Positions 5,501-50,540 of a DNA stretch of 64,000 bases are shown here, in pieces. The stretch covers positions 671,040-735,039 of the forward strand of contig CP129472.1 of assembly GCA_030583725.1 (NCBI GenBank). Direction: 5' to 3'. A program made the translations under genes and the position numbers. The stretch's first letter is position 1, and every line of letters begins with the position of its first letter. Source of the stretch: a bacterium. Lineage in GTDB: Bacteria; Patescibacteriota; Microgenomatia; UBA8517. The notes below the pieces were generated by a model. That model searched no databases. It worked only from the letters and a program-made list of their open reading frames with translations, and was not told the DNA's origin.

Positions 5501-5511
5501 TGATGTCAAAG

Positions 5512-8930: not shown

Positions 8931-8933
8931 CCT

Positions 8934-9173: not shown

Positions 9174-9180
9174 GTTGCTC

Positions 9181-9385: not shown

Positions 9386-9430
9386 ATATTAATGTTTTGC
9401 CCAAGGTGAAGCGCAAGATGTTTACAACCT

Positions 9431-10335: not shown

Positions 10336-10374
<39 letters not shown>

Positions 10375-12607: not shown

Positions 12608-12738
12608 TGTTCTAAGGTAGCGAAGTTCCTTGCCAGGTAAGTTCTGGCCCGCACGAAAGGCGTCACGAGTTAGCAACTGTCTTGAGGATTCACTCGGCGA
12701 AATTGCGTTGGCTGTGAAGACGCGGCCTAATCCCACTT

Positions 12739-12770
<32 letters not shown>

Positions 12771-13170
12771 TTTGGCATTGTCTTAATAATTTTTGATCGT
12801 CTAGTATAGGAGGGAGCCGTTAAAAGCATCAGTGTAATACCTCCCGTTAGAAATTATTGGACTTACTCATTTCCCCTGAAGACGGGGAAGGGAAAAGTGC
12901 TAGATGGGCAGTTTTACTGGGGCGGTACCCTGCCAAAGTGTAACGCAGGGGCACAAAGGTTGGCTTGCTACGGATGGAAATCGTAGTGTAACTGCAAAGA
13001 GATAAGCCAGCTTGACTGCAACACCGAAGGGTGAAGCAGGTACGAAAGTAGGTCTTAGTGATCCCCCGATCCTTCATGGGAGGGACGGGGCTTAACTGAT
13101 AAAAGCTACCCCGGGGATAACAGAGTAGTCGCGCCCGAGAGTCCATATCGACGGCGCGGTTCGCTACCTC

Positions 13171-13997: not shown

Positions 13998-14089
13998 GAT
14001 GTCGGCTCATCACATCCTAGGGCTGGAGAAGGTCCTAAGGGTTGGTCTGTTCGCCCATTAAAGTGATACGCGAGCTGGGTTCAGAACGT

Positions 14090-14387
14090 AAATAACATTG
14101 CGTTACACATTAGTAATAATGTGAGTAAATATCGACTAAAATCGGTGAAACCCTAGATTAGATTCGTCCGAGTCTAATTGGGTAATACCGAGGGTAAGAC
14201 AAAATCTTTTTAGATTTTGTATCCCGTAGAGACTGATTCGAAAGAAGAGGCATCAAATTAATTGGTGCAATACGTCGACGCCTATTAGAAAGACCTAGGA
14301 ATATGGTTAAAGTAACCTAAATTTCAGGAATAGGATGAAGATATAGTCCATGCAACTAGTAATAGTTGAATAACATGCGTGAGACAG
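14090..14387 (+). mobile_element. ORF-less group I-like intron in 23S at the E. coli ~2593 site (between GGGTTCAGAACGT and CGTGAGACAGTTCGG)
   Basis: 298-nt insertion exactly between the conserved AGAACGT and CGTGAGACAG. Contains GGATGAAGATATAGTCC (S element). Ends in G. No ORF of 60 aa or longer. Confidence 0.65.
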
Positions 14388-14516
14388 TTCGGACTCTATC
14401 CAGTGGGATCGTTCGAGTTTTGATGGGAGTTGTCCACAGTACGAGAGGACCTGGATGAAGGAATCCCTAGTGTGCCGGTTGTGTCATCAGATGCAGCGCC
14501 GGGTAGCTACATTCCT

Positions 14517-14555
<39 letters not shown>

Positions 14556-14810
14556 CCAAAGATTAGAACTCGTAGTCCGAAAGGACGAGAGACCCCCGAA
14601 AGAATATCGGGTATAACCGGAAGTAGGTGGAAGCGCCGTAAGGCGTTAAGCTTAACTTTACGGATTGGTCGAAGAAAACCTTACAACATTGTATACAAGG
14701 TATATGGTGTTAACGATTAACAAATGTTTATTCAAACTTTGCGTAGCAAAGTAGTGGATAAACCTATTATTTCTAGTATAAAATTATCCTTCAGTTGTCA
14801 GGGTATTTAA

Positions 14811-14930
14811 GTCTTGGTGATTTGAGCGTGGTGGAACTACCTGAATCCATTCCGAACTCAGAAGTAAAACGCCATAGCGCGGACGATAGTTGTGGGGCAA
14901 CCTACCGCGAAAATACGTCATCGCCAAGAC
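14811..14930 (+). rRNA. rrf: 5S rRNA
   Basis: GTCTTGGTGA...CCGAACTCAGAAGTAAAACGCCATAGCGC...GCCAAGAC. Terminal helix complementary (GTCTTGGTG/CGCCAAGAC). 120 nt. Confidence 0.8.
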
Positions 14931-34712: not shown

Positions 34713-34943
34713 TTAGTTAGTCAAGACGGGTTCACTTTCTATTGATTCCAGTTCAATAATCCACCAGTTAAACTCAACGTCTGATTCGAGTGTTTCAGAA
34801 AAACCAACCTCAAAGTAACCAGTATCTTTAGATTTTACATATAGCACTTTGTTTTGTGTAGAAGCTATTGGTGTTATATAGATTAGAGTATTAAGAGATA
34901 CTTTGTTATTGTTTATTCTAACCTTCCTTGTGTTTGCAGGCAA
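34713..34943 (-). pseudogene. orphan copy of the C-terminal ~70 aa of the giant surface protein (no ATG; TTG at most)
   Basis: Translation ...ATAGKAVLPANTRKVRINNNKVSLNTLIYITPIASTQNKVLYVKSKDTGYFEVGFSETLESDVEFNWWIIELE is ~95% identical to the end of the 37082..44188 product. In-frame sequence upstream runs into a stop with no ATG. Confidence 0.55.
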
Positions 34944-34968
34944 AACTGCTTTTCCTGCTGTTGCATGG
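34752..34968. repeat. direct repeat copy A (~215 bp; 146-bp core identical to 37140-37285)
   Basis: Manual alignment with 37097-37313. Core CAGAAAAACCAACCTCAAAG...GTGTTTGCAGG identical. Flanks have a few mismatches. Confidence 0.85.
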
Positions 34969-34977: not shown

Positions 34978-35802
34978 TTAACTTTTTATAATTAAGCGAT
35001 TAGGATTAAATATATCTTTCCAAGTCATGAATCTGCCGTTTTTTTTCAAATCACTATCCAATTTTCTATCAACTGAGTAATTTGAACCAATGTCATAATC
35101 TGGGACAGTAAGTGAACCAAACCTCTTTGCTAATGTAAGTTTGTTATTTTCTGTATAGATCATTAAGTACGATGGAATTGGATTGAATTTGTTTAAAGCT
35201 AATAAAGCATACATAAATTTACTATTAGTTTCTCTTGCTTGTGATGATCCGCCTCCACCTCGGTGAGCGTATTTTTTATTACCATCTTGCCAAATGAAAA
35301 GATTATCAAATAGTGTACGCCAATCAACCCAATTCAAAGGTTCAGGAAGATTGTAATATCTTTCCCTTTTATATTCACACCGATTTTTAAATAATTTAGT
35401 ATGATTCTTATTTTTTAAAAGAATCTCATCTTTATATTTTGGTTCAATTTCTTTTTTAAAAATTAAATCATCGTTTCGATCGTACTTATCTAACCAGCTT
35501 CTATATACTTCATTAACTTCATCTTCTCCATATTCTTCATATAGTTTTTTAAAAAGTAGTTCATGATAAAGGGTTTGTATAGGAATTTTAGTTAATTTGA
35601 CATATTTCTTTTTATGTCTAAGTTCCCATTTTAATCTTTCGATAAATATCGAAACAACATAAGGATTTTTATTTTTTATTTCTTTGATAATTTCCCCGTG
35701 GTTATTAAAATTTTCAGGAGACCAAAGAACATCCTTCAATAAATTATGATCAAAATTAGAAGAAAGTACAGTCTTTTTATTATTTATATAAATATGATTC
35801 AC
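34978..35802 (-). CDS. hypothetical protein (274 aa), Lys/Tyr-rich, with a GGGG stretch
   Basis: ORF immediately downstream (4 nt) of the DUF4143 ATPase at 35807..37018. No family recognised. Confidence 0.5.
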   Translation of the reverse strand: MNHIYINNKKTVLSSNFDHNLLKDVLWSPENFNNHGEIIKEIKNKNPYVVSIFIERLKWELRHKKKYVKLTKIPIQTLYHELLFKKLYEEYGEDEVNEVYRSWLDKYDRNDDLIFKKEIEPKYKDEILLKNKNHTKLFKNRCEYKRERYYNLPEPLNWVDWRTLFDNLFIWQDGNKKYAHRGGGGSSQARETNSKFMYALLALNKFNPIPSYLMIYTENNKLTLAKRFGSLTVPDYDIGSNYSVDRKLDSDLKKNGRFMTWKDIFNPNRLIIKS

Positions 35803-35806: not shown

Positions 35807-37018
35807 TTAAAGATATGTCCAAGGAATTACAGTAATACGATCACTTAATTTGTATGGTTTTTGATCCGTTGTAATAACATATCCTTTTTCTAGTTTGTTA
35901 TCATCTAAAAAAGTATTAAGACCAGATAAATCTTTTAATCCGATGTTTTTACCTGACTTAATTTCTATAGGAATAACTTTGTTATTAGTCTCAATGATTA
36001 AATCTACCTCAAGACCACTTTGTGTTCTCCAATAATATAATTTAAAATCACCTTTTAAATTTTGCCTTCTAAACATTTCTAAAATTACAAAATGTTCAAA
36101 TAATGAACCTCTGTCAATATTGGTTAAATTTGCTTCAAGTGGAATATCGGCAACTGCATTTTTTACACCTATGTCAAAGAAATAATATTTCGGCGTTTTG
36201 ACAATTCTTTTTCTTGCATTTTTAATAAATGGAGGTAATTGATGAATTATGAGAGTATCTAATAATATTTGATAATATTCTTTAACAGTAATTACTGATA
36301 TCCCTGTTTGGTTTGAAAGTGAAGTAAAATTAGGGTTACCTCCTGATTCATATGCTGCAAGTTGTAAAAATGAGCTAAATAAACCTAGATTTCTACTTAT
36401 GGCTTCAGCTCTAATTTCTTCTTCTAAGTAAATTGTTGAATAACTATGGAGTAATTGTTTTCTTTGAGGAGCGGGGATAGAAACAACCTCAGGAAGAGAA
36501 CCATAAACCATGCAGTCATTAAGGCTGAAATTATTATCTTTCGTAATAATATTTGGCAATCCTATTTCTGGAATATAATTTTTGATAGTTATGCCAAGCT
36601 CTCCCCACATAAGTGGGTCAAGATGTTGAAGGATTAACCTTCCCGGCAGAAGGTTTGCATGCGACCTTCTCAATTTTCGTGCAGAGGATCCAGTTAATAT
36701 AAATTTTTTATGATGTTCATCAATTAGATATTGGATACTATCAAAAAGTGCAGGAACTTTTTGAATCTCATCAATATAAATAATATCAGCAGTGTTAGCT
36801 AATTCATATTCCTGAATAAGTCTGGCTGGTTCCTTTTCGTAAATGATTCTTAAGGCCGGATTTTGGAGGAGGATTGAGTCGAAATGATGTTTTTTGGACA
36901 AGACTTCTCTTATTAATGTCGATTTTCCAACCTGACGGGGTCCAAGCAACAAAATAGATTTGTTGTTTTTTAGTGTCTGATTTAGATTCCTTGAAATATG
37001 CCTAGTATATAAATACAT
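35807..37018 (-). CDS. AAA+ ATPase of the AAA_14/DUF4143 family (second copy)
   Basis: Walker A LLGPRQVGKSTLI. Walker B IYIDEIQ. DUF4143-like C-terminal half. Confidence 0.7.
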   Translation of the reverse strand: MYLYTRHISRNLNQTLKNNKSILLLGPRQVGKSTLIREVLSKKHHFDSILLQNPALRIIYEKEPARLIQEYELANTADIIYIDEIQKVPALFDSIQYLIDEHHKKFILTGSSARKLRRSHANLLPGRLILQHLDPLMWGELGITIKNYIPEIGLPNIITKDNNFSLNDCMVYGSLPEVVSIPAPQRKQLLHSYSTIYLEEEIRAEAISRNLGLFSSFLQLAAYESGGNPNFTSLSNQTGISVITVKEYYQILLDTLIIHQLPPFIKNARKRIVKTPKYYFFDIGVKNAVADIPLEANLTNIDRGSLFEHFVILEMFRRQNLKGDFKLYYWRTQSGLEVDLIIETNNKVIPIEIKSGKNIGLKDLSGLNTFLDDNKLEKGYVITTDQKPYKLSDRITVIPWTYL

Positions 37019-37081: not shown

Positions 37082-40000
37082 CTAAATACCTTCTAATTCA
37101 ATAATCCACCAGTTAAATTCAACGTCTGTTTCTAGTGTATCAGAAAAACCAACCTCAAAGTAACCAGTATCTTTAGATTTTACATATAGCACTTTGTTTT
37201 GTGTAGAAGCTATTGGTGTTATATAGATTAGAGTATTAAGAGATACTTTGTTATTGTTTATTCTAACCTTCCTTGTGTTTGCAGGTAAAACTGCTTTTCC
37301 AGCTGTAGCATTTGAGTTTATTTCTCCTTCTACGATTGTTGCAGATTCTGTAGCAGTAGTATCAATATTATTTGCAACAATTATATTATTAATAGTTAGG
37401 TTACCTGCAACTTCAACATTACCCAAAAATTTAGTGTTTCCATCAATATCAACTGTTATTTTTCCTGCCATTATTTCAAGTGGGGTAGCTGCAAGAGATT
37501 GAATTTGTAGTGGCATATCAAGTGACTCTATTTTGTTGACAGTTAATAGGTCAGAGACAAAAAGTGATGATATTGCAGCTTGACCTGTAACATATAAGTT
37601 GTTTGCTTGTATACTTTCTGCAATCAAGTTAGTAAATGTACCATCTTCAAAAGAAGTATCAGTGCTCCAATTTTGACTTTCTGCCAATAAACTTTGGTTT
37701 GTTTCAACCTCACGCAATAATTCTTCAATTTCTGAAAGTCTGGTTGACTCAATATCATCTGCATATAATGTTCCTGAAATTGTTGCATCACCATTTACCG
37801 CTAATTGATTGGATTCAACAGTACCTTCAAAGTTTGCATTACCCAAAGAGTCAATTGATGCTACTTCTTGATTATCTTGTCCATTAATAACTAATCTTGC
37901 AGATTCAGAAGCTGAGAGATCAATGATTAAACTAGAATCTGCAATTGGGGAGATGATATTAGTTTTAATCTCTGGAGTAATTATGCCTGCAAAAATACCA
38001 ATCTGGGTAACTACTCTTTCTGTAACCACATCAATTAGTTCTCTGGTACTATATAGATAACGGTAAACTCGACTCTCCATGGACGTTGGATTTGGAGCGT
38101 AAGAATTATCAATAATTATAGTAATTGTGTCTTTTCCAGTGTTTGGTTCCCAGTTTTCAGTTGCTTTACCAATTGTACGGTCTCCAGCCATAGCTAGGGT
38201 GGCCAAACCCGGTGTTTGGGATGAGGTTAGTTCTGCTCCTGCAAAAATAGCAGGGGAGTTAGGGTCAATTTTGACCGGAATTCGACCAGCCAAACCCAAA
38301 AGCCTTCTATTTTCGGCTTCAATGCCTAAAGTTTTGCCTGCCTTGGTAGAAATAGCTCCAATTAGATTTGGGTCGTTAATTGATTTTGCCTTAGTAAGTA
38401 TAGGAACACTAAACTCATCCATTTTTCCGGTTATGGAAACTAAGTCTCCTGCACCAATTGAGTCATCATCAACTGTGTACCATTCTGCCAAATCAGCGCC
38501 AAAAACTACGGCATCAAGACGTAATTCCTGCTCTTCACCGGTGTAGTTATAAAGGCGGACGGTGTTGGTGTCAACTTGCTCAATTTTGTAGCCATCGTTG
38601 TAAGTAAGATATACATTTTCCACTTGAGGCTGATAGGAGTTGTTGGTGGTGGAGAGTATGATCCTATACTGTAAATACTCGTTCGGGGTAGAAGTTATTT
38701 TGGAAAAGTTATTATCAGTTAACAACTTTTCAGCTCTAACATTATCAATATATATAGTATTTGAGGATGCAATTAAGTTTGTAAACCTTAATTTTGTAAT
38801 AGCATCTCTTGCACCCGATTGTATGTCAGACAAATCCCAATATACCTTTTGCCAAACGTCAGCTGCGTCAATTTTTACAAACTCTTCCTGTTCCGTGCCG
38901 GCACTTTCTCCCATACCCACTTTTACAGTACTGCCAGTTTGCGAAGCTCTGATCCAAAAAGTGAGATAGTCGTAGCCGGAAAGATTAGCTGAAGTGATGG
39001 TGTCTTCAGCGTAACCACCATTGGTAGAAGAAGTAAGCTTGGTGAGATTACCGGCAGTTGCCTCATCTTCATCTTCAAACTGATCAACGTTTCTGGTGAC
39101 GTCACCATCGGCCACAGTCAAGTTAGTACCTGTCCACTCGGTATGGGTATTACCATCACTTAAATCAAGGTAGTTGGAGGTAGCAGTAAACGGTTTCCAA
39201 GCTTCCCAAGTTCCGTCAGTTGGGGACAGGGTAGAACCACTTCTGGTTTGGAAGGAAACTTTACTATATGGCACAATTGGAGTTTCCCACCTGATTGACT
39301 CAAGACTGGCTGAATTTGGGGTGCTTATTACTTTACTGTGATACAAACCATAGGTATGGTAGCCAGAGAGTGATGTGTTGGAAGCAGGGGAACTAGTTCC
39401 AGAAATCGATGACGAGTATTCAATTGCGATTCTGCCACTTCCCCCCGCTCCTCCGTGACTACCGGCGTAGCCACTACCAGCACTTCCACCCGTAGCGCTT
39501 ACCAGGGAAGATCCCAGTGTTAGGTTCTTGCCCATTATTTTGACGGAACCACCACTTGCCCCACCTCCACCTGTTCCGTGTGTAACACCGTTTGAACCCG
39601 CATTGCCGTTGGCCCTGATAGAACCGGTGACAGTAATATTTTCTGCGCTGACAGTTACTATTCCCCCAGCAGTACCGCCCGCACCACCACTCCCGGACCC
39701 CGTACCGTCTGAGTAACTTGCCCCACCTCCACCGCCAGAACCTAAATAAAGTTTTGCTAAGGTGGTGGAACCGTAGGTAGTACCAGCCAGTGTGCCGTAG
39801 GTACTTGTGTTACCAGCTGTGCCATATGATCCTCCTCCACCGCCCTGTCCTCCATTGTAAACGCCTCCGGCGCCACCGCCGATATTATTATTACCCGAAC
39901 CTATGGAATTCAAATTTGTACCAACACCATTTGAACCATTAGTCCTGTTTGGTGAAGGTCCGCCAGCTCCACCGGCGTAACCTAAACCGGTAGCGTGGAT

Positions 40001-43000
40001 ATTCCCGGCTACGGAAACTGTGCCAGTGGCTCTGAAAAACATCACACCGCCCTTGGCACCACTAAAAGCCGACGGAGTAAAGTTCATGGAGGCGTTGACG
40101 GTGACATTGTTGTAATTGGGAACTCTTTGGATCATAACTAATTGGTTGGTTCCACTGGTAGTGCCGATATTTGAATCACTACCGGCAATGTCACCGTAAT
40201 AATTAAGCTTTGAGGTTTTGAAGGTAATAATGTTTGATGAAACACTTAAAATTCGAAGAGTTTCAAAGTTTCCGACATTGTCATAGGCACTCACAATTCC
40301 TTTTAAGTTGATAAGTAATATCTCATCTCCGGCAGCAAGACAACCGCTGGCAGGGGTAGTGCTTAAAGTAGCAGTGGTTGCAGTAAGGGTAGTTACCGAG
40401 TAATTCACCGCATCGCCACCGTCGGCACAACTTCGGCCGGAAATCAGGCTGGTTGTATTTATATTTGTGTTACCTGAAACCGTAATATTCCCATCTCCAC
40501 CTGTGCCGGTATCGATAGCTGGAGTAATCTCAATATTTGTCAGTTTAGTTTGAGTGCGGGTGAGATTGCCTGTGGTAGTATATGAGTTACCATTGCCGGA
40601 ATTGTATAAGTCTGTAATTTCAGCAGCAGATAATTTTTTCTTCCAAAAACCTACTTCGTCTATTATGCCATCAAAAAAGAGTTCTTCGGTTGTATATCGA
40701 GCTCCAATTCTAAAGTTGGCTACAGTGTCAGATACAACACCAGTTTCTGAGGCTGAATCAACTGTGCCATTGTTGGCTTGGATACTGCAGGTGTCGGCTG
40801 TGGCATCATGCCAAGCGGTTAAAAAATACCAAGTCGCGGTGGAAGGAGCCCCGAGGTTATTAGCGGTGGCAGTACAAACGGTAGTGCCAGACGAATTGGC
40901 AAGAATAAACTCAAACCGGCTTGAGGTGTTGTTGTAATAGAGCTCATATTCTTTGACGGATGAACTCTCTGACTTGCTGACGATAGTTCGGTTAGCTCCT
41001 GTGCTTTCTAGGTTCACCCAAGCGCTGATGGTGAAATCAATGTCTCCTGTTGAAAGTGAGGTGTTGTCAGTAATTTCAAAAAATTCACTATTAGTGCTTT
41101 CCAAGTCTGCTCCATTATTAACTTTACCCGTACCTGAAGCGGTGGTGTTGTTGTCTGTCAGGTTGTTACTTCCATAACTATCATTACGAGTGGTAGCGCT
41201 AGATCCAGCACTGGCTTCATTCATTGTCCAGAAGCTGATTAAGTTATTAATAAGGGTACCTTGGGAATCAACCAAGAAAGTTTTTGCAGAAGCATCATCA
41301 AATTCGTTTTGAAGTGCATGTTTTACGGTTTGGGTGGAATTGGTGATAGTTTTCCAAAGACCTGTTATTTTATCCTTAATCCAAGCCGTTAAAGATAGGT
41401 CGTTGGTATTTTGGTTGTGGGCAATTTCAATATAGTTTTGATTAGCGACAGCGGCGTTGGTTTGGGAATACTTGGTCATATCCAGGGCAATACGATGCCA
41501 CGCACTATCAGATCCATATAAAAAGAGGTGGTCAGTAGAAGAACTTCCTGCTGAGTTATTATCATAAAAAATTGTTCCTTCAATAGTATTAGTAGTTGAA
41601 GAAATATTACTTGCTAGAGTTATGGCGCCATCGTTGTGAATTGTAAATTTAGTAGTTCCAGACGCACTTGCTGTAAAAATATCTCCACCTTTGTCATTAT
41701 TAACCATTAAGGCTGCCATTCCGTTATTAACTGTGTTGTTTACCCACCAGACACCATTGTCTAGGATGTTGGGACTATTAACTGCTGAAGCATCATCTGC
41801 AAATATAATAGTTGCAGTACCATCTGGGTTTGAAATTATTCTTCCATCTAAATATAAAACTCCATCAACTTCCAAATCTCCACTGATTAAAACGTCATCT
41901 GATGTAGTAAAACCATGTCCTGTTGTCGCTGTTCCAAATCTGGAGTAGGCAACAGGAGAGGTACTACCGACTTGTAATGATCCGTCAAGAGCAATTCTTG
42001 CACCAGTTGGATCAACTAATAAATATCCATTTGAATCTAATGTAAAACCAGAATAAACAGTTCCGTCAGTGTAAGTTAATCTTAATTGTTCACCTGATGT
42101 TGCCAGAGAATCAAGTTTTGCATCTGGTCCAGTTGTCCCAATACCGACGTTGCCGGCAGAGGTGTCAACATAGAGTTGGTTGGTGTTAACAGCAAAATCA
42201 CCGGTTGTGGCAAGGGAGACATTGAGGTTTTGACCTGCAGTTGGGGTCAGAGTTAATGACCCACCTGTTCCGGTGCCAGTTAAAGTCATTCCGCCTGTCG
42301 ATCCAATTGTACCTGACCAGTAGTTACTGGCGTCATATCCAAGTCTAAGTTGTTCCGTCGTTTCGTTTATGGTGAGTTTCGCCGTAGGCGATGTCGTCCC
42401 AATACCGACGTTGCCATTTTCTACAATCAGCCCATAATTATTAGTAGCTCCTGAAGCAGAGAAGTAACCACCGATATTAATTGATGTTGTTCCTGTGTTG
42501 GTGACATTTGAGTAAAGTCCATATGCAGTGTGTGATGCATTGGCGTTAGTTCCACTTCTTATAATGTCTAGTATTTTAGATGAACCACTTGCTCCACCTG
42601 CTGTAGAAGTAGAGGAGAGGTCAAATAATGTCCCTGTGGTTAATGAAGATGAAGCAAGAGAAAAAGCATCTGCTGCTGTGACTGAGTTAAAAGTAAATGC
42701 AGTGGTGTAACCTGCATGGGCTAGGGATAGATTTGCAGTTGGGGTTAGTAAGTCTGACCAAACACTACTTCCACCCCCACCACCTAAACTACTAAAATCA
42801 GTCACACAGTTTGTTTCTCCATCACCTGTACAAAACTTGGTAGCTTCAATTGTCCCATCTGAGACTGGTGTTCCAAAAGTAGAAATTCCAGAAGTCACAT
42901 ATAAATCAGCCCCAATAGTAGTTAATCCTGTTGAGTCGACAGAAAATTTTGAAGTTGGTGTTGCTCCTGATAGAAAATTAATAAAATAGTAACCAGTGGC

Positions 43001-44188
43001 ATTACTGGCAATTGTTCCTGCATATAGTGATCCAGAAGTTATGTTTGCATTTGTTGCATTTACAAAACCATTTGCACCACCACCTGGTGCTGCTCCTTCA
43101 AAAATTAGGTCAAGAGTTCCAGTGCCATCTGGATTGATGGTTATGATACCGTTTGATGTATTTGGAGTGGTTAAGGTTAGTGCTTGTCCTTCTACTGCAA
43201 AGGTGCCTGAAGTAGATTGTATTTTAGGTGATGCGGAAGCTAAAACAACTGTTCCTGTTGAATCAATGTATGGAATTGTAGATGTTCCTGTCCCCGCGGG
43301 AAAGCCTTGTAGCGTTTCTGAGTTAATAGCATATGCAACTGTTGCAATTTGTATTCTTGGTGTTGCTTCAGCGTCTGTTCCAACGGTTACACCTAACCAA
43401 ATGTCTGCATTTTCACTAAAAACACTTGAAGCAATTTCTGCTCCACAAGATGAACCAAGTAGGGTTGAAAATATACCATCTTGATCGGGTGTAATTGAAC
43501 AAGTTCCAGAATCCCAAAGTTCAGTTCCCCCGGTTGAAACTGCGTATAACTTAAAAACCATATTTGTTGCTACAGTTTCCGGGTTTCCTAGGTCATCAGT
43601 TAACCTTCCTTGAAAGGATAAAAATCTGTTTGGTCGTTCAAGAGCGGTAGGGAAGGCAAGTGACCTGTCTGTTGAGTAGAAAACCTGATCATATACCGCA
43701 TAACCTGAAAGTGATGAAAATAAAATTAAAATTGCGATATGAATATAACTTGCAAGTGGATATGAATGATACTTTCTGTACCAGTTTGGTCGGTTGAAAA
43801 ACAAACTTGTTAAAACATTCTTTAACTTAGGTTTATTAATAAACTTTGAAATTATTCTTTCTTGCCAAGACTTTGAAATTGTTCTAAAACTAGACACATT
43901 TTCAACACCACTCATAAAGTTACTACCAGTGAAGTTTGAGTAACTTCTAAGTGTTGAAAGACGCCTATTTAAAGTTGAAAGTGGGGTAGTAAGTCTTTGT
44001 GAGTTAATATACTCCCTAATTAAATTTGAGCTAACCTTGCGATCACCAGCCCAAGTTAAAAAATTAACAATATCTGATTTGTAGTATTTTAAAGATTTAA
44101 GGGAAACTCCGTGTAATTTTAAATATCTTAAAAAATTTTCAATAACTTTGGTTTTGTTTACAACTTCTGAATTATTCATTTTCCGCAA
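37082..44188 (-). CDS. giant (2368 aa) membrane-anchored surface protein with an N-terminal integrase-SAM-like segment, TM anchor, repeated NVGIGTT(S/G)P motifs, a LamG/ConA-like lectin domain and a Gly-rich region
   Basis: Residues ~15-90 (IENFLRYLKLHGVSLKSLKYYKSDIVNFLTWAG...LSTLRSYSNF) follow the tyrosine-recombinase N-terminal SAM-like pattern. TM YIHIAILILFSSLSGYAVY. NVGIGTTSPTAKL and NVGIGTTGPDAKL. FDGIIDEVGFWKKKLSAAEI (Laminin_G_3-type). Long GGxGG tracts. Confidence 0.8.
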   Translation of the reverse strand: MRKMNNSEVVNKTKVIENFLRYLKLHGVSLKSLKYYKSDIVNFLTWAGDRKVSSNLIREYINSQRLTTPLSTLNRRLSTLRSYSNFTGSNFMSGVENVSSFRTISKSWQERIISKFINKPKLKNVLTSLFFNRPNWYRKYHSYPLASYIHIAILILFSSLSGYAVYDQVFYSTDRSLAFPTALERPNRFLSFQGRLTDDLGNPETVATNMVFKLYAVSTGGTELWDSGTCSITPDQDGIFSTLLGSSCGAEIASSVFSENADIWLGVTVGTDAEATPRIQIATVAYAINSETLQGFPAGTGTSTIPYIDSTGTVVLASASPKIQSTSGTFAVEGQALTLTTPNTSNGIITINPDGTGTLDLIFEGAAPGGGANGFVNATNANITSGSLYAGTIASNATGYYFINFLSGATPTSKFSVDSTGLTTIGADLYVTSGISTFGTPVSDGTIEATKFCTGDGETNCVTDFSSLGGGGGSSVWSDLLTPTANLSLAHAGYTTAFTFNSVTAADAFSLASSSLTTGTLFDLSSTSTAGGASGSSKILDIIRSGTNANASHTAYGLYSNVTNTGTTSINIGGYFSASGATNNYGLIVENGNVGIGTTSPTAKLTINETTEQLRLGYDASNYWSGTIGSTGGMTLTGTGTGGSLTLTPTAGQNLNVSLATTGDFAVNTNQLYVDTSAGNVGIGTTGPDAKLDSLATSGEQLRLTYTDGTVYSGFTLDSNGYLLVDPTGARIALDGSLQVGSTSPVAYSRFGTATTGHGFTTSDDVLISGDLEVDGVLYLDGRIISNPDGTATIIFADDASAVNSPNILDNGVWWVNNTVNNGMAALMVNNDKGGDIFTASASGTTKFTIHNDGAITLASNISSTTNTIEGTIFYDNNSAGSSSTDHLFLYGSDSAWHRIALDMTKYSQTNAAVANQNYIEIAHNQNTNDLSLTAWIKDKITGLWKTITNSTQTVKHALQNEFDDASAKTFLVDSQGTLINNLISFWTMNEASAGSSATTRNDSYGSNNLTDNNTTASGTGKVNNGADLESTNSEFFEITDNTSLSTGDIDFTISAWVNLESTGANRTIVSKSESSSVKEYELYYNNTSSRFEFILANSSGTTVCTATANNLGAPSTATWYFLTAWHDATADTCSIQANNGTVDSASETGVVSDTVANFRIGARYTTEELFFDGIIDEVGFWKKKLSAAEITDLYNSGNGNSYTTTGNLTRTQTKLTNIEITPAIDTGTGGDGNITVSGNTNINTTSLISGRSCADGGDAVNYSVTTLTATTATLSTTPASGCLAAGDEILLINLKGIVSAYDNVGNFETLRILSVSSNIITFKTSKLNYYGDIAGSDSNIGTTSGTNQLVMIQRVPNYNNVTVNASMNFTPSAFSGAKGGVMFFRATGTVSVAGNIHATGLGYAGGAGGPSPNRTNGSNGVGTNLNSIGSGNNNIGGGAGGVYNGGQGGGGGSYGTAGNTSTYGTLAGTTYGSTTLAKLYLGSGGGGGASYSDGTGSGSGGAGGTAGGIVTVSAENITVTGSIRANGNAGSNGVTHGTGGGGASGGSVKIMGKNLTLGSSLVSATGGSAGSGYAGSHGGAGGSGRIAIEYSSSISGTSSPASNTSLSGYHTYGLYHSKVISTPNSASLESIRWETPIVPYSKVSFQTRSGSTLSPTDGTWEAWKPFTATSNYLDLSDGNTHTEWTGTNLTVADGDVTRNVDQFEDEDEATAGNLTKLTSSTNGGYAEDTITSANLSGYDYLTFWIRASQTGSTVKVGMGESAGTEQEEFVKIDAADVWQKVYWDLSDIQSGARDAITKLRFTNLIASSNTIYIDNVRAEKLLTDNNFSKITSTPNEYLQYRIILSTTNNSYQPQVENVYLTYNDGYKIEQVDTNTVRLYNYTGEEQELRLDAVVFGADLAEWYTVDDDSIGAGDLVSITGKMDEFSVPILTKAKSINDPNLIGAISTKAGKTLGIEAENRRLLGLAGRIPVKIDPNSPAIFAGAELTSSQTPGLATLAMAGDRTIGKATENWEPNTGKDTITIIIDNSYAPNPTSMESRVYRYLYSTRELIDVVTERVVTQIGIFAGIITPEIKTNIISPIADSSLIIDLSASESARLVINGQDNQEVASIDSLGNANFEGTVESNQLAVNGDATISGTLYADDIESTRLSEIEELLREVETNQSLLAESQNWSTDTSFEDGTFTNLIAESIQANNLYVTGQAAISSLFVSDLLTVNKIESLDMPLQIQSLAATPLEIMAGKITVDIDGNTKFLGNVEVAGNLTINNIIVANNIDTTATESATIVEGEINSNATAGKAVLPANTRKVRINNNKVSLNTLIYITPIASTQNKVLYVKSKDTGYFEVGFSDTLETDVEFNWWIIELEGI
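37097..37313. repeat. direct repeat copy B (3' end of the giant gene)
   Basis: See copy A. Confidence 0.85.
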
Positions 44189-44657
44189 TTTATATAATAG
44201 GTTCAGATTATACTGATTATACCGACCTGTACTAATATTATTATATACCCACAGCCTGTCAAGAGGCTAAATGTTAATGAAAATAGTATATTATTAAATA
44301 TATGTTTCACAGATAAAATAGTTTAATTTCCGCACAGTAATTCTACTACCAAATATATCAAAGCATCTTATATTTATGTATATAGTTTACAATATTACTA
44401 TTATCGGGTTGAATTATTTGTGCCTAATAATGCCATTATGGTTATTTTGCGGAAATATGCGGTAAATTATTATTGCGTTTTTTAATTTATTTTAGCTATC
44501 GGTAATTATTCAATTTCTGTAAGATTTGCAGGAATTAGATCAAGTTTGGTCTTTTATTTTTTGTGCTGTTTTGTATTTGACTTTGGCATTTTAAGTACTT
44601 GACTGCTACGACTAATTTGCAGTTGTTTCGTCCCAATTTTATGAGTATATTTAAAGA

Positions 44658-45107
44658 ATGAATGAAGAATCTAACTTTTCCAGTAACAAGTCTAATTTTT
44701 TAATTGTAGTAGTCTTACTTGTTTTTTTACTTACTTTAGGGATTCTAGTTTATTATATTCGTTTCCAAACTACAATAGCTCCTCGTGCGGATAATTATAA
44801 TTCTATTCAAAGTGTTTCAATTGTTAACTCATATGTCTTTGCATCTCCAGTTAGAGCTAAAGCCTCTGGTGACTTAATACGGGTTACAACATTTGCTTTA
44901 GATGATAATGGGTCAGGTTTATATGACAAAAGGGTTGAACTGAAGTCTGATAATTCAGGCCTTGCGATAAAAGAGATACAAAGCTTAACAGATGAAACAG
45001 GTAAAGCCCTATTTGATTTAAGCTCTGATATTATTGGGACATATACTGTTGATGTTTATGTTGATGGTGTTAAATTGCCACAAAGTTTACGGGTAGTTTT
45101 TGACTAA
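44658..45107 (+). CDS. hypothetical membrane-anchored protein (149 aa)
   Basis: N-terminal TM LIVVVLLVFLLTLGILVYYI, then a beta-rich region. Confidence 0.45.
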   Translation: MNEESNFSSNKSNFLIVVVLLVFLLTLGILVYYIRFQTTIAPRADNYNSIQSVSIVNSYVFASPVRAKASGDLIRVTTFALDDNGSGLYDKRVELKSDNSGLAIKEIQSLTDETGKALFDLSSDIIGTYTVDVYVDGVKLPQSLRVVFD

Positions 45108-45110: not shown

Positions 45111-46010
45111 ATGTTTACCACTGCTCCAGAAATAATAAATGATGCAACAATAGGGCAGGTTGTTACCCAACCAACAGCTACACCAACATCATCACCAAGT
45201 ACTACAACTGATTCAACTCCCACCGCTACACCTGTTTACACTTTCCCTTCATTTAAAAGGTATAGTGATAATTCGTTAATAATCTATGGGTTTGGACCAA
45301 TTAAATCTAAGGTGTTTTTAAAAGGTTTTGGTGTTTCTGAAGAAACAGTTTCTGATGAGACTGGTTTATTTGTATTTAATAGAATATACAGTCTGACTTT
45401 GACTTATCCAGAGCTTTGTGTACAAGCAACTGATGATTTGGGTAGGGTTACGCAACCTACTTGTATCCCAAGCCTACCAGGGAATAGTTCGATACCCTTA
45501 GAGGTGGGTCCGATATTGTTGTCTCCTACCGTTTCTTTGAGTAAAAATAGGGTAGTAGAGGGCCAAGACGCAATTATTACTGGTAAAACTACCCCAAACA
45601 CATTAGTTAATCTTTTTGTCTCCAAAAGTAATGACTTGTCAAAGTTAAGTTTTGTGTCTGAGGTCAATGCATACAGTTTGCCAGTTGTGAACACTACGTC
45701 GGATGATGAAGGTAAATTTGAAATAAGCTTGCCAACTGGGACAAAAGCAGAATACAGGATGTTTGCTTCTACTAAATATGGTGAAAATCTATCTGCAAAA
45801 AGTAATACACTAACATTTGCAGTAATAACTGATATTAAGTCCCTGTTGGAGAGGTTTGTTAATTACTTAATAACAAACAAAATAATAGTTGTTTTAATTG
45901 TAGAGGCAATCCTCATCGTTTTATTACTTATTCTGGCTTTAAAATCGAATAGGAGAGTCCAGAAGCGTCATAATGAAAAGGATTATCTAAAGTTTGTGGA
46001 GTCTTTTTAA
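45111..46010 (+). CDS. hypothetical surface protein with Thr/Pro-rich N-terminal region and C-terminal TM anchor
   Basis: TQPTATPTSSPSTTTDSTPTATP. C-terminal IIVVLIVEAILIVLLLILAL + KSNRRVQKRH. Confidence 0.45.
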   Translation: MFTTAPEIINDATIGQVVTQPTATPTSSPSTTTDSTPTATPVYTFPSFKRYSDNSLIIYGFGPIKSKVFLKGFGVSEETVSDETGLFVFNRIYSLTLTYPELCVQATDDLGRVTQPTCIPSLPGNSSIPLEVGPILLSPTVSLSKNRVVEGQDAIITGKTTPNTLVNLFVSKSNDLSKLSFVSEVNAYSLPVVNTTSDDEGKFEISLPTGTKAEYRMFASTKYGENLSAKSNTLTFAVITDIKSLLERFVNYLITNKIIVVLIVEAILIVLLLILALKSNRRVQKRHNEKDYLKFVESF

Positions 46011-46348
46011 GAAGCGTTGGAGTATCTACTAGAGTATTCCTTTTTAATTCTTTGAGACAAAAAAATCTTCATTAGTGATTGGTATGGAACATCCTGTTCG
46101 TTTGCAAGCATTCTTAAATCTTCTAACATCATTTGGGGAAGCCTTAATGTTACCTTTGCAGTTGATGGTTTGAGCTTTGAAAAATCAAGTTTGACTGGTT
46201 TAAAAATGTGAAGATAATCAGTTACACTGTGATTTGCCCAAAAGTCTCTCTCTTCATCCTCGTTTTTAAAAAGGGGGATTGTTGGTAATATTTTTTTACT
46301 ACGTAGTAGCAAACTCTGTTTACCCTGATTCTTTTTTTGTATCTTCAT
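46007..46348 (-). CDS. BrnA-like (CopG/RHH-type) antitoxin family protein, apparently without an adjacent BrnT toxin. The track ORF extends to 46408; likely start MKIQKK.
   Basis: KNEDEERDFWANHSVTDYL...KVTLRLPQMMLEDLRMLANEQDVPYQSLMKIFLSQRIKKE matches the BrnA pattern (EEExxFWxxHDxxDY...RLP...L...A...GVPYQSLIK). Confidence 0.5.
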   Translation of the reverse strand: MKIQKKNQGKQSLLLRSKKILPTIPLFKNEDEERDFWANHSVTDYLHIFKPVKLDFSKLKPSTAKVTLRLPQMMLEDLRMLANEQDVPYQSLMKIFLSQRIKKEYSSRYSNAS

Positions 46349-46434
46349 ATATTTTTCTTTCTTTGTTGTATCTAATATTTTATTGAAATGATAAAGTAAC
46401 TTCATCATTTTTGTACGATATTGTCAACTTGAAG

Positions 46435-47436
46435 TTATGATTTAGGTAATTTGTCCTTGAATTTATTTTTTAACATTTCTACCTCGTGTATTTCTTCTTC
46501 TAGTCTTTTTTCTAATTCCTCCTGTTTGTTTTTTGACTTCCTGCTCATTAGGTAGGAGAGTAGTATTATAATTATGATTGAGAAAATAATCATAACAATA
46601 ACTGTTACGGGTATGACCCAAACATAGTTGGTTGCAGTCAAAGTCTTGCCTTGCTCTCCATAGCTTGCCACTAAGTCAATTTTGTATCTTCCAAACATCC
46701 AAGTCTGACCCAATTCCACTTCATAATTTCTTTTGGCACTTGGAAATATATTTTTATCTTCCAATGTGACCCTTTCAGTTTCTTGTCCCATCCAATTAGT
46801 CAATGTTACTTGTCCTTTAGGGTTTATATGGTAGCCACCTTTGTTGCTAATCTCAAAATAAACAGGAATTTTGCCAAACTCAGAAAATATTGGAGATTTA
46901 AATATGTCTACAAATGCAGATTCTGTAATTGGGCCATTAATTCTTGTGTTGACTAAACCTACAATTCTTGGTGAGACCAACGATGCTGCTTCTGAATTTG
47001 AAGTTTGGGTTAGTTGTCCAGTCTGCTCGAAAATAATTGCACTATATCTTCCTCCTGGAAGGGTCTCTTGGGGTACGTTGATTCTAAAATTAACCCTTAA
47101 TACCTCACCTGAAGGTATTACTGCTTTAGTAAAAGGTAGTTCGATCCAATCATTAATTTGATCTTCAAGTAAAATGGGGGACCCATCTGTACCAGTAACT
47201 ATGAAGTCAACAGCCTTAATGTTTCCCGATATTGGTTGATCTGTTTCATTAAAAAACTTAATTTGTAAGTTTTCAGACTTACCTGGGTCAATAGCTACTG
47301 TTTGTCTAGAGGGGGCAACGGTCAAGGGTATTTTTGTCTGAGCGTTAGCTGTACTAAATACAAAGTACATAGAACAAAGAAAAGTAATTAGTGATAGAGC
47401 AGTTATAATCTTTAGATTGAATCTCATTTTTTTCAT
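46435..47436 (-). CDS. DUF916/DUF3324-like cell-surface protein (signal peptide, C-terminal TM + charged coiled-coil tail)
   Basis: Signal peptide. TVAPSRQTVAIDPGKSENLQIKFFNETDQPISG... C-terminal TM VIPVTVIVMIIFSIIIIILLSYL. Pattern-level family call. Confidence 0.45.
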   Translation of the reverse strand: MKKMRFNLKIITALSLITFLCSMYFVFSTANAQTKIPLTVAPSRQTVAIDPGKSENLQIKFFNETDQPISGNIKAVDFIVTGTDGSPILLEDQINDWIELPFTKAVIPSGEVLRVNFRINVPQETLPGGRYSAIIFEQTGQLTQTSNSEAASLVSPRIVGLVNTRINGPITESAFVDIFKSPIFSEFGKIPVYFEISNKGGYHINPKGQVTLTNWMGQETERVTLEDKNIFPSAKRNYEVELGQTWMFGRYKIDLVASYGEQGKTLTATNYVWVIPVTVIVMIIFSIIIIILLSYLMSRKSKNKQEELEKRLEEEIHEVEMLKNKFKDKLPKS

Positions 47437-47441: not shown

Positions 47442-48938
47442 TTAAAATGTTGGCACAGCTGTATATTGTATTTTATTATAGTAATATCCAGCAGGCTGTG
47501 TACCTGTAATATCAATCCTGTAACAAACGTAAACACTTGACCCATCTACCGGCCCTCCATTTTCCATTATGTGTGCAGTTGAAGCACTTCTCGATTCTAG
47601 TGCTTCCTGATCTGCAAATTGTTTGGCATTAAAAGTATCACCACCAGCACCATCCCAGTCAAATATTGCGTCGGTTCCTGAGGAATTTTGTAAAGAATAT
47701 CCTAGTCCTGGGTATGAAGTAGGGTCAGAACCCCAGTCCCTATATGTTTGATGTGTACAACCCGTACCGTCACAAACAGTGTCTTGTATACAGTCATCTG
47801 CCTCTCCGGCAGCTGCGCCCGTACAAACTTTACCGTCTTTGCCCATTTGATCATTTTGTTCAACATAGACTTTATAACCAGAACCAGCATTTGTTGAAAC
47901 TGTTATTTGATGGTTGGTGTTGTGTGTAGCTGCTAAATATGTAGGAGACAAAGTTCCCCAACCAACAGAAGTTGCTGTTGTATCGGGTGAACTTGCTGTC
48001 CTAGTTATTCCACAATAGGAACCAGAGTCGGCAGTGATACCAGTAATTGTCAAGGAGAGCGACTCATCAACTGTCGCAGAAACAAGGATTCCCTCGACTG
48101 GGGCAACTGCAACATCTGAACTATCCAGTGTTGCATCAGTACCATCTCTTGACTTTATGTTTATTTGATATGAATCAGCTTGACCTTGGGTATGCGTGGT
48201 TAACGGTGCAGGGTTAATTATTCCTGGAGTTGAGTCAATTGTTACGGTAATTGCACTTAATGCTGCACAAGCTGAAGTTGCACGATTAATTAATATTCTA
48301 TGATCATTTGTAGCATCGCCTGCAGTGATTGAGGCAACTGTCCAGTTTACATCAGTGCATCCTGTAACTGCTATATCGGTTGTGGCGATGGTGCTGATAT
48401 CAAATCCATTGGCTGTTGTGCTTGCACCAGTATCAGGTATACCATCATTTGTTTTACCTGTTGAGTCAACTGCTGGGATTGTAATATAAAGATCTCCATT
48501 TGCAGGTATTTCTGTTACTGTAGTAAAAGCTAGAGTCAAACTACCGGATTGAGATGCAACTACATATGCAGTTGATTCAAGTGTTGTTGTTAGGGCCGAA
48601 GTTAAATTAAAAGTTGTGCTATCTATTATGTTTGCAACACTATAATTAACATCACCTAAACAACCTGTTTCTTCACTTCCTGCAAAACAAACAGTATCTC
48701 CAGGGAATAAGTGATTAGTGTTATTATCAGCGTTTCCGGAAGCATCAATTGTCACAGTTGATGATCCTGAAGTGCCTGTTGCAACACCAGCTTTATATGA
48801 AAACCTTGCATTAGATAATGTTGCAGAGGCTGATGTAAAGTTTGCTGAGTGTGTTTTGGTTCTTGGTGAAATTAAAATATAACCAAGGCTAAAACCTAAC
48901 AATAAAACAACAAAAATTATTAATTTCTTCTTCTCCAT
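47442..48938 (-). CDS. secreted Thr/Ser-rich surface protein with a divergent WxL-like C-terminal motif
   Basis: Signal peptide. C-terminal ...GTQPAGYYYNKIQYTAVPTF resembles the WxL C-terminal motif (AGTYxGxLTWTLxxAP) with W replaced by Y. Paralogous to the C-terminus of the 49818..50540 product. Confidence 0.45.
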   Translation of the reverse strand: MEKKKLIIFVVLLLGFSLGYILISPRTKTHSANFTSASATLSNARFSYKAGVATGTSGSSTVTIDASGNADNNTNHLFPGDTVCFAGSEETGCLGDVNYSVANIIDSTTFNLTSALTTTLESTAYVVASQSGSLTLAFTTVTEIPANGDLYITIPAVDSTGKTNDGIPDTGASTTANGFDISTIATTDIAVTGCTDVNWTVASITAGDATNDHRILINRATSACAALSAITVTIDSTPGIINPAPLTTHTQGQADSYQINIKSRDGTDATLDSSDVAVAPVEGILVSATVDESLSLTITGITADSGSYCGITRTASSPDTTATSVGWGTLSPTYLAATHNTNHQITVSTNAGSGYKVYVEQNDQMGKDGKVCTGAAAGEADDCIQDTVCDGTGCTHQTYRDWGSDPTSYPGLGYSLQNSSGTDAIFDWDGAGGDTFNAKQFADQEALESRSASTAHIMENGGPVDGSSVYVCYRIDITGTQPAGYYYNKIQYTAVPTF

Positions 48939-49816
48939 ACTTTAAATATGACTTTATATCTAATCAAAGTCAATAGTAACAGAATTATAATTGCATATAT
49001 GAATGGAAAGACATAAGTTGTAGTTTCTGACTTATATATTTTTGCCTCATCATCAATTGAAAACTCTAATTTGGTTATCATTTTTCCAATAATAAGTTTT
49101 TGTTTAGGTGTACAGTCAACTAAAGACTCTCCATCAAGACAATTTATACTTCTTGAATATCCAGAAAGAATATTTTGGGGGGCAAGCTTTAACATTTCCT
49201 CATCATTTATTATTATTTTTCCATTTGGTTTCCAGAAAGAGTTGCCATTGTTCATAATTAAAACTTCGAAACTAAATGGTATGAGTGGGTCAGAAACAAG
49301 AGGTGCCTTAAACTTAACAACCTCTGCAGATTTTTTTGGGTTACCATCTTTTGATATGGTAACTAAGATGTTTGATCCTATTTCTGTCTTGTATAAACTT
49401 AAGTTATCATCAGTAATACTATTTGGTTCTTGGGATTCAAAAATTAAGGTTATAAAATGATCAGTTTCGGGTGTTGTTTCTGGAGGAGACAAACTTATAT
49501 TAAATATCTTTTGTTCTTGGTTTTTGATTGTAAATTGATCAGGATTATATCTAATCCAATCGGGTGCAGGAATATCTGTAGTTGTTACATTTCCCATTAT
49601 GTCTGATGGAATAAAATAAATTAGCTTAGGTTTCAATATTATGTCAGAACCATTATTAGTTAGTGCATATGTTTGTTTAACCTCTTTACCTGGCTGAATA
49701 GTCACTTCAAGTAATGGTGGGGTAATTGAAAGTGAAATATTACCTTGGGCAATTGTCTTTTGGTCAAACACAAAGAACAAACTAAAAAAGAAAAATGTAA
49801 ATACTATATATTTCAT
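48920..49816 (-). CDS. DUF916/DUF3324-like cell-surface protein (second copy)
   Basis: Signal peptide. SLSITPPLLEVTIQPGKEVKQTYALTNNG. C-terminal TM FIYAIIILLLLTLI + RYKVIFKVWRRRN. Confidence 0.45.
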   Translation of the reverse strand: MKYIVFTFFFFSLFFVFDQKTIAQGNISLSITPPLLEVTIQPGKEVKQTYALTNNGSDIILKPKLIYFIPSDIMGNVTTTDIPAPDWIRYNPDQFTIKNQEQKIFNISLSPPETTPETDHFITLIFESQEPNSITDDNLSLYKTEIGSNILVTISKDGNPKKSAEVVKFKAPLVSDPLIPFSFEVLIMNNGNSFWKPNGKIIINDEEMLKLAPQNILSGYSRSINCLDGESLVDCTPKQKLIIGKMITKLEFSIDDEAKIYKSETTTYVFPFIYAIIILLLLTLIRYKVIFKVWRRRN

Positions 49817-49817: not shown

Positions 49818-50540
49818 TTAATATCCTGGTATAGCTGTAAATGTAATTATATTCTGATATGTTCCTGCGGGTTGAACCCCGCTGACATTAACTTTATAAG
49901 TAATTGTAGCTGTTCTCTCACGACCGACATTTATTGAACTCATTATTATGGCTGGATTTTCTGCACTGTTTCTATCAGAAAACTGTCTGAAGTAGTCTGA
50001 ATTTACAAAATCGGCTGGTATGTCATCACCACTCATATTAAACCCAAAGCCATACCTTGAGTTAGACGTCCAAGTACCCGCAGACGTTTCACTACAAGTT
50101 GAGTCACAAAGAGTGTCTATGATAGTGTTTGAACCATCTGATGTTTTTAAAGGATTATTTTCAGAAGCTTTGACTGTATATCCTCCTGCCCCTCCAGCTG
50201 AAACAGTTAAGATTGATGTATCTGTTGATGGTGTGCCTGGTGTTAGAACACCAAAATTAATTTGTATATCACTCACGGAAAAAGAAAAAGGAATTATTGA
50301 GTTTATGTATTGAAAACCAGATTTGACTCTAAAGCCTGTTGATGAAAAAAGTCCAGGTGCAGTTTGACCTATTGTTGTGTTTAAATAATAGTTGTCAGAA
50401 GAGGGTATTCCTGCCCCTGAATTGAAATTTGGAAAAATTATTCGATAATTTTCTGACTGTACTCTTTCTTGTGCGTAAACGAGACTCAAATTAGAAATTA
50501 TCAGAAAAAAAAATATGCAACAAAACATAAACTTTTTCAT
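49818..50540 (-). CDS. small secreted WxL-like surface protein (240 aa)
   Basis: Signal peptide. C-terminal GVQPAGTYQNIITFTAIPGY (WxL-like with F in place of W). Internal SAGGAGGYTVKA analogous to the first WxL motif. Confidence 0.45.
   Translation of the reverse strand: MKKFMFCCIFFFLIISNLSLVYAQERVQSENYRIIFPNFNSGAGIPSSDNYYLNTTIGQTAPGLFSSTGFRVKSGFQYINSIIPFSFSVSDIQINFGVLTPGTPSTDTSILTVSAGGAGGYTVKASENNPLKTSDGSNTIIDTLCDSTCSETSAGTWTSNSRYGFGFNMSGDDIPADFVNSDYFRQFSDRNSAENPAIIMSSINVGRERTATITYKVNVSGVQPAGTYQNIITFTAIPGY

Follow-up and report, generated by a model that had tools for sequence, protein, structure and literature searches.

The stretch of DNA analysed here, 64,000 nt of the genome of an ultra-small bacterium of the Microgenomatia (lineage UBA8517; assembly GCA_030583725.1, contig CP129472.1, positions 671,040 to 735,039; hereafter the window), harbored a giant open reading frame (ORF) on the minus strand at 37082..44179, whose product has 2,365 aa from an ATG start codon, or 2,368 aa if counted from a TTG at 44188. 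A preliminary description of this DNA had proposed that the first ~90 residues of the product follow the SAM-like domain of integrases and XerD, and that this domain lies in-frame with a downstream membrane anchor and a giant extracellular region. The peptide on which it was based was the true translation of the minus-strand ORF, and the order of parts was as described. The ORF begins with a core-binding (CB), or SAM-like, domain of four helices (aa 11-90; 43910..44149), which is predicted to be cytoplasmic and has a net charge of +9. A linker of low model confidence, also predicted to be cytoplasmic (aa 91-140; 43760..43909), carries a conserved NFMxGVENV motif and the basic juxtamembrane sequence RPNWYRKYH. 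This is followed by a single transmembrane (TM) helix (43679..43759; aa 141-167 in the structure model, with the most hydrophobic 20-mer at 143-162) and by a first extracellular module (43430..43678), in which the family signature R-x-LSFQGRLTD...GNP...CSITPDQDGIF forms invariant alignment columns; all of these features are on the minus strand.

The identity of the N-terminal segment was examined with sequence profiles and structure comparison. The Pfam model PF02899 (Phage_int_SAM_1) matched aa 13-83 with 32.8 bits (gathering cut-off, 22.3; E 8e-8), and PF13495 remained below threshold. The NCBIfam models of XerA, XerC, and XerD aligned over only their first ~110-117 positions, corresponding to the CB domain and the start of the inter-domain linker. 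An AlphaFold2 (AF2) model of aa 1-186, built from a 36-sequence alignment, contained four helices (3-22, 27-44, 51-61, and 67-84) with pLDDT values of 94-98. In a Foldseek comparison of this model with the PDB, the top 23 matches were all CB domains of tyrosine recombinases, including XerA (4a8e/5hxy), lambda Int (1z19/5j0n), IntI (2a3v), and Cre, with a probability of 1.0 and a root-mean-square deviation of 2-4 A across 80-98 columns. The modest Foldseek E-values (best, 8.5e-3) arise because about half of the 186-residue query lies outside the CB domain. Additionally, a profile of the family N-termini matched genuine XerC/XerD proteins carrying both PF00589 and PF02899 (E 1e-11 to 1e-6), as well as the N-domains of XerD, XerA, and integrases in the PDB. 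The best PDB sequence match, 9i5v_14 ('RaiA'), at first seemed to be a ribosome-binding protein with a CB domain; it is an Xer-RaiA fusion in which only 34 HPF-like residues are modelled and was set aside as irrelevant. The mean net charge of the CB domain was +5.1 across the family, compared with +9 in the window copy and +4.8 in 29 genuine Xer CB domains, and basic residues conserved family-wide (K30, R71, R72, R77, and K/R78) were located on helices B and D. These results confirm that the N-terminal segment is a genuine tyrosine-recombinase core-binding domain, in agreement with the preliminary description.

No catalytic partner of this domain was found in the window. Pfam detected the catalytic domain PF00589 neither in the giant ORF nor in the 31 further window ORFs submitted to it, and the 13 remaining ORFs were judged by eye to be housekeeping genes, so the window gave no support to the idea that a catalytic integrase domain might lie elsewhere. 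A six-frame scan of the window with a hidden Markov model (HMM) of the family CB domain returned only the copy in the giant ORF. In the giant protein the CB domain is followed by the TM helix and not by a catalytic domain. Recombination could not be catalysed without such a domain, PF00589, which supplies the R-K-H-R-H/W pentad and the Tyr nucleophile; none was detected in the giant protein.

The hydropathy profile contained no hydrophobic segment within aa 1-130, and an N-terminal signal peptide is lacking. The flank of the TM helix on the N-side (RPNWYRKYH) is richer in K/R and the flank on the C-side is acidic. From these flanks and from the domain's charge of +9, the anchor is predicted to be N-in, C-out (type II). 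The giant protein is thus modelled as bitopic, with a cytoplasmic N-terminus, one TM helix, and an extracytoplasmic C-terminal part of ~2,200 residues. In this part, Laminin_G_3 at aa 1036-1188 is the only Pfam domain in the protein other than PF02899, and NCBIfam reports an AgmC_N-like Gly-rich region at aa 1225-1592. Homology of the ectodomain to phage tail fibres was considered and rejected, as neither PHROGs nor a PDB sequence search gave a match. At the end of the window, an ORF on the plus strand (63518-64000) contains a ~80-aa repeat that is 36-42% identical to aa 1722-1816 of the giant protein, which suggests, by sequence resemblance, a second large surface protein with related modules.

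Relatives were collected by a degenerate-pattern scan with the extracellular signature, using one genome per GTDB species; this yielded 346 stretches that encode a relative. In the following, counts over 78 refer to species-level relatives with N-termini, and counts of neighboring genes refer to 83 fetched loci with 6-kb flanks. The best 80 stretches came from metagenome-assembled genomes of Woesebacteria, Roizmanbacteria, Collierbacteria, Pacebacteria, and other members of the Microgenomates group, with some placeholder taxon labels that are evidently wrong. The region ahead of the extracellular LSFQGRLT measured 130-440 aa in these loci, and the ORFs were mostly longer than 2,000 aa (relatives ranged from 1,000 to 7,448 aa). 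The family HMM detected a CB domain in 76 of the 78 N-termini, including two tandem copies in 25, and PF02899 itself matched 66 of the 78 (best E 5.6e-25), giving a copy number across the family of 0.5 (split), 1, or 2. A profile search of 1.84 billion representatives of clusters at 50% identity returned 656 proteins at E<=1e-30; the best 150 matches all had E <1e-89 and lengths of up to 7,448 aa, and their matched part was N-terminal, often with extra repeats upstream. These results indicate that the CB domain is an old, conserved cytoplasmic tail of a giant-protein family and exclude a one-off capture. The comparison of orthologous N-termini proposed in the preliminary description, with a conserved cytoplasmic domain unrelated to recombinases as the outcome that would count against it, gave that outcome with one exception: the relatives do share the same conserved, predicted cytoplasmic N-terminus, but the domain is recombinase-derived.

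Two side observations concern the records of these relatives. In the NCBI and JGI databases, N-terminal fragments of the giant proteins (P0003, P0007, and P0163) are entered as 'site-specific integrase, partial' or as 'site-specific recombinase XerD'; such systematic mis-annotation would inflate the counts of integrases and mobile elements in genomes of the candidate phyla radiation (CPR). In the syntenic relative L001 (ENA ERZ1286166 contig_2776, 559 kb), several genes, among them the giant gene and the LeuRS gene, are fragmented into numerous short ORFs, most likely by frameshift errors of long-read assembly rather than as pseudogenes.

The 5' end of the gene is conserved together with the domain. 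The ATG at 44177..44179 (minus strand) forms part of a GCGGAAA-ATG sequence that is invariant in 9 relatives, and the triplet aligned with the upstream TTG (44188) reads ACG or TCG in four of these nine. The ATG at 44179 and not the TTG is taken as the start codon because the TTG belongs to a conserved DNA motif and is replaced in those four relatives. A sigma70-type promoter, TTGACA-N16-TAATAT (44235..44262, minus strand), lies ~50 nt upstream of this ATG and is likewise invariant in the alignment of 9 relatives. For codons 1-90, codon alignments with three relatives (61-74% identical) gave proportions of nonsynonymous and synonymous differences (pN and pS) of ~0.22-0.23 and 0.53-0.79, respectively, with synonymous sites near saturation; dN/dS was 0.28 against L001 and 0.14 against L003, the pairs for which dS was computable. 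The CB segment is under purifying selection. It had also been suggested that an internal ATG at residue ~92 (NFMSGVENV) could give a product without the domain. This Met is present in the window, within the conserved post-domain motif (D/N)F(M/T/L)xG(I/V)EN(V/I), but it is deleted in one close relative, substituted in others, and not preceded by a promoter of its own, and the conserved promoter serves the ATG at 44179. The claim of an internal start was therefore not upheld.

The intergenic region upstream of the giant gene contains a recurrent short motif, TGCGGWAA. One TGCGGAAA site (44180..44187, minus strand) abuts the start codon, and another (44327..44334, minus strand) lies ~150 nt upstream of the ATG. 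Two tandem opposed sites, TGCGGAAA and TGCGGTAA, are found on the plus strand at 44448..44455 and 44458..44465, with starts 10 bp apart, and are inverted relative to the 44327 site at a distance of 113 nt. The 64-kb window holds five matches to TGCGGWAA, four of which fall inside the 470-nt divergent intergenic region. Across the 78 species, the 650-nt stretch preceding the first CB domain contained the motif at 2.25/kb, compared with 0.105/kb elsewhere (~21-fold), and at least one upstream site was present in 60 of the 78 loci. Positions and orientations are fixed: 41 loci have a forward site between -100 and -200, and 42 have reverse sites between -200 and -400. The sites form inverted arms of 15 nt that are 87% complementary and separated by 101 nt; among the relatives, the arm spacing stayed within 112-115 nt for the 12 closest and was 124 nt in a further one. 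A structured RNA or riboswitch in this region was considered and rejected, as Rfam gave no match and RNAalifold paired only the invariant arms, with no co-variation at the W position and no internal consensus structure.

The genes around the giant gene resemble a pilus locus. We assessed neighbor conservation by tblastn of the window ORFs starting at 29,000-52,000 against the 83 loci. The gene order was fixed, with six conserved neighbors, each present in 37-61 of the 83 loci, followed by the giant gene. On the minus strand, these were a 240-aa secreted pilin-like protein (49818-50540; 54 loci), a 298-aa chaperone-like protein with an immunoglobulin (Ig)-like fold and a C-terminal TM helix (48920-49816; 37 loci), a 498-aa secreted pilin-like protein (47442-48938; 57 loci), and a 333-aa protein that is again Ig-like and chaperone-like with a C-terminal TM helix (46435-47436; 61 loci). 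Two divergent genes on the plus strand encode a 299-aa C-terminally anchored protein (45111-46010; 51 loci) and a 149-aa protein with a TM helix and a Big_1 Ig-like domain assigned by Pfam (44658-45107; 53 loci); this pair represents candidate PamT/PamR-like parts. The model of the 333-aa protein showed two Ig-like sandwiches between a signal peptide and a C-terminal TM helix, and matched Enterococcus WxLIP and the chaperone-usher chaperones CfaA, Caf1M, FimC, and CsuC. A gene identical to that of the 333-aa protein also occurs on a 74.9-kb contig of the metagenomic sample SRR24881069. A PDB sequence search bearing on homology between the pilin-like neighbors and PamA/PamB of M. amalyticus gave no relevant match in a PDB copy that lacks the PamA/PamB sequences. 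No other nucleic-acid-binding-type domain was found in the six conserved neighbor genes. A non-conserved CopG antitoxin gene (46007-46408) is inserted in the pilus locus.

The pam pilus operon of CPR bacteria comprises the chaperones PamC/PamD with C-terminal TM helices, Ig-like pilins, and the anchor PamR; a 'tail fibre-like protein' is consistently co-localised with it (Troman et al. 2026 preprint, 10.64898/2026.03.03.709456). The window shares with this locus the signal peptides, the Ig-like folds, and the C-terminal-TM chaperone-like proteins of the neighbors, the adjacent giant fibre-like gene, and the taxon Microgenomatia. Based on gene order and neighbor features, the giant protein is very likely the Microgenomates version of this pam companion. 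The text of the preprint contains neither 'integrase' nor 'recombinase', and no cytoplasmic domain is described there for the tail fibre-like protein (10.64898/2026.03.03.709456). Full-text searches aimed at the combination of a CB domain, a TM helix, and a giant ectodomain found no description of this architecture; the CB tail of the pam-associated giant protein appears to be undescribed so far.

The membrane-proximal CB domain is divided between two ORFs in ~23 of the 78 species, with the break in the loop that joins helices B and C. The ORF upstream then encodes a full CB copy plus helices A-B of the next, while helices C-D stand at the start of the giant ORF, ahead of the TM helix. This layout was found in L018, L019, L021, L026, L029, L031, L037, L040, L042, L046, L050, L054, L057, L061, L062, L064, L065, L072, and L076 and is probable in L056, L060, L078, and L083; in L029, for example, the upstream ORF occupies 5971-6516 and the giant ORF runs from 6520 on. 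The junction is a single in-frame stop in L029, L031, and L050, and elsewhere it is a frame change or a 600-900-nt spacer with a protein-coding gene. The spacer genes encode NYN-domain proteins (L026:2161-2877, L062:4035-4598, and L065:5365-5940) or four-helix 23S_rRNA_IVP proteins (L042:5442-6011 and L057:2941-3660) and look like selfish inserts, which recalls the free-standing homing endonucleases by which phage genes are split. The soluble 1.5-domain ORF was found only among the split relatives. Because a split inside so small a domain is conserved, the halves presumably reassemble non-covalently at the membrane, and the CB domain would thus at least also be an assembly interface. Regulated capture or release of a soluble piece that binds DNA would also fit the split.

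At the other end of the giant gene, positions 34746-34966 repeat 37091-37311 (221 nt, 96% identity) as a direct repeat that duplicates the last ~75 codons. Between the two repeats lies a 2.3-kb insert, which contains a gene for an AAA_14/DUF4143 ATPase (35807-37018) and an ORF of 274 aa without a Pfam match (34978-35802), genes that stand beside the giant gene in only ~5 loci. The insert looks like one that carried or regenerated the 3' end of the giant gene. The preliminary description had taken the duplication, together with the N-terminal domain, as the mark of a recombination hotspot. The 221-nt duplication is real, but it represents a separate insertion at the opposite end of the gene, unlinked to the N-terminus, and the hotspot reading is not supported.

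Elsewhere in the window, the rRNA operon (855-14929) is heavily interrupted by ORFs for LAGLIDADG endonucleases, which lie within or after the 16S pieces (1716-2564, 3018-3674, and 4643-5077) and in or near the 23S gene (11973-12488 and 13316-13873). A gene for a TraG/VirD4-like coupling protein (5970-8285, minus strand) is located with two tRNAs between 16S and 23S.

Taken together, a membrane-tethered, locus-specific DNA-binding role is the most economical explanation of the CB tail because the domain has stayed basic, with K/R conserved on helices B and D, because CB-type regulators offer precedents and cis sites are conserved, and because no other nucleic-acid-binding domain was found in the conserved locus. 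In this explanation, a tyrosine-recombinase CB domain was domesticated anciently, with loss of its catalytic partner, and became the conserved cytoplasmic tail of giant N-in, tail-fibre-like surface proteins that accompany the pam-type locus of Microgenomates. The domain may have kept its ancestral activity of binding short, often inverted DNA sites and would work as a membrane-tethered DNA-binding module, with a fold of the FliZ/YopR type and a topology of the ToxR/CadC type. Its most likely targets would be the TGCGGWAA sites between the giant gene and the divergent pilus-associated genes, and the outcome could be that the state of the giant fibre is coupled to the expression of the locus or that the locus is tethered to the membrane. 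CB-type domains without recombination are actual or proposed DNA-binding regulators in FliZ, SPbeta YopR, and the N-terminus of P4 Int (PMC3367168, PMC8612738). The work on FliZ, a global repressor of E. coli, identifies helix 2 as the one that binds DNA in integrase-family CB domains and matches it to one of the two DNA-contacting helices in Cre; helices B and D, which carry the conserved K/R, are those reported to touch DNA in such domains (PMC3367168). We favor the domesticated domain acting on TGCGGWAA operators only tentatively, at a confidence somewhat short of an even balance.

A more elaborate form of this explanation is a transmembrane signalling device of episymbiotic CPR bacteria that consists of a single polypeptide. 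Load on, or engagement of, the >2,000-aa fibre, for example on host contact, would alter the oligomeric state or availability of the CB domains; their subsequent binding to the inverted TGCGGWAA operators would switch the divergent giant-fibre and pam pilus genes. In the split variants, half-domain complementation at the membrane would serve to capture or release the soluble 1.5-domain protein. We regard this elaboration as unlikely.

Several points weigh against a DNA-binding tail. The topology is a prediction, and 18 of the 78 loci lack an exact TGCGGWAA. A test of whether CB residues are associated with the presence of sites gave a weak signal that is confounded by phylogeny (best p 3e-3 over ~80 columns), and the sites could serve an unlinked soluble regulator or an alternative promoter. 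Isolated recombinase CB domains bind DNA weakly and with low intrinsic specificity. Moreover, the mid-domain split in ~23 species suits protein docking at least equally well.

Protein docking is accordingly the first alternative to be weighed. The CB bundle may have lost DNA binding and serve as a cytoplasmic adaptor that positions, oligomerises, or helps to export or assemble the fibre and the pilus machinery, with the upstream protein of the split forms docking by half-domain complementation. The splitting exactly at the helix B/C loop, which implies non-covalent reassembly at the membrane, the variable copy number of the domain, and the long, flexible linker in the AF2 model are consistent with this possibility, and CB domains mediate protomer contacts in recombinase tetramers. 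However, docking leaves unexplained the retained basic charge with conserved K/R on helices B and D as well as the locus-specific conserved DNA sites. The conserved locus also encodes no candidate cytoplasmic partner, its other products all being secreted or membrane proteins. We consider docking possible, but somewhat improbable.

A nonspecific nucleic-acid tether would explain the high positive charge (+9 in the window copy, mean of about +5) by binding of the basic domain to the nucleoid, to incoming DNA, or to nascent mRNA and ribosomes, as in transertion-like anchoring or DNA handling, and would leave TGCGGWAA to another regulator. The low intrinsic specificity mentioned above fits such a role, and comEA/comEC, identified by eye from translations, lie ~9 kb away in the window. 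Nevertheless, invariant or near-invariant columns hold the residues that mark specific Xer-type CB domains, the comE genes were not among the conserved neighbors detected by tblastn of ORFs starting at 29,000-52,000 in loci with 6-kb flanks, and a nonspecific tether gives no reason for conserved cis sites in 60 of the 78 species. Such a role is therefore doubtful.

The inverted arms, lying upstream of surface-structure genes in a layout like that of a fim-type switch, would also suit an invertible promoter segment of ~113 bp, in which the CB tail modulates a chromosomal Xer-type recombinase and thereby phase variation of the fibre and pilus; TGCGGWAA may loosely resemble the XerC arm of dif. 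We found no change of orientation of the segment between the arms in any of the 11 relatives in which the marker block AGGCAC could be placed (11/11 in the same orientation), however, and the distance between the arms hardly varies. The main promoter is located outside them, and no recombinase gene was found in the window among the Pfam-scanned ORFs or in the six-frame scan with the CB HMM. Inversion is thus very improbable. Finally, the reading of the preliminary description, in which a recently captured 5' fragment of an integrase serves as an accidental new start, possibly bypassed through an internal ATG, and marks a hotspot, is right that the domain is recombinase-derived and that the 3' duplication exists, but scarcely any credence is left for it given the purifying selection, the conserved start and promoter, the occurrence in 76 of 78 relatives (often in duplicate) and in hundreds of clusters, the non-conserved internal Met, and our finding no close orthologue without a CB domain.

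The CPR/Patescibacteria constitute a substantial part of bacterial diversity and live attached to host cells, and few regulators are recognisable in their genomes. The giant-protein family offers a concrete, testable candidate for a link between the cell surface and either gene expression or nucleoid organisation. After FliZ and YopR, it is also a further case of a domesticated CB domain, one whose single, tandem, and mid-domain-split forms make up an unusual evolutionary series.

Compared with known systems, the giant protein shares with the CB domains of XerC, XerD, and XerA (PF02899) a homologous four-helix fold, the S..Y..D residues in helix B, the R.L...R residues in helix D, and the basic charge. 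It differs from the Xer recombinases in that, in place of PF00589, the CB domain is followed by a linker and a TM helix and then by ~2,200 extracellular residues, and in that its relatives carry tandem or ORF-split CB domains. FliZ, YopR, and the N-terminus of P4 Int likewise have a CB-like domain without a catalytic domain; those proteins are soluble, whereas the CB domain of the giant protein is predicted to be membrane-tethered and its DNA binding is putative. RodZ is a small protein with a cytoplasmic helix-turn-helix domain that binds MreB, a TM helix, and a periplasmic domain; it thus has a DNA-binding-type fold at the cytoplasmic N-terminus of a bitopic protein, a possible precedent for docking, although the fold is another one. 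In topology, the giant protein is predicted to parallel ToxR, TcpP, and CadC, which are bitopic N-in proteins with a cytoplasmic DNA-binding-type domain and one TM helix, and the giant gene has candidate operators in the adjacent divergent promoter region. In those regulators, however, the cytoplasmic domain is an OmpR-type winged helix (Trans_reg_C), which Pfam did not detect at the N-terminus of the giant protein, reporting PF02899 instead, and the small sensor domain on the far side of the membrane contrasts with a fibre-like part of >2,000 aa.

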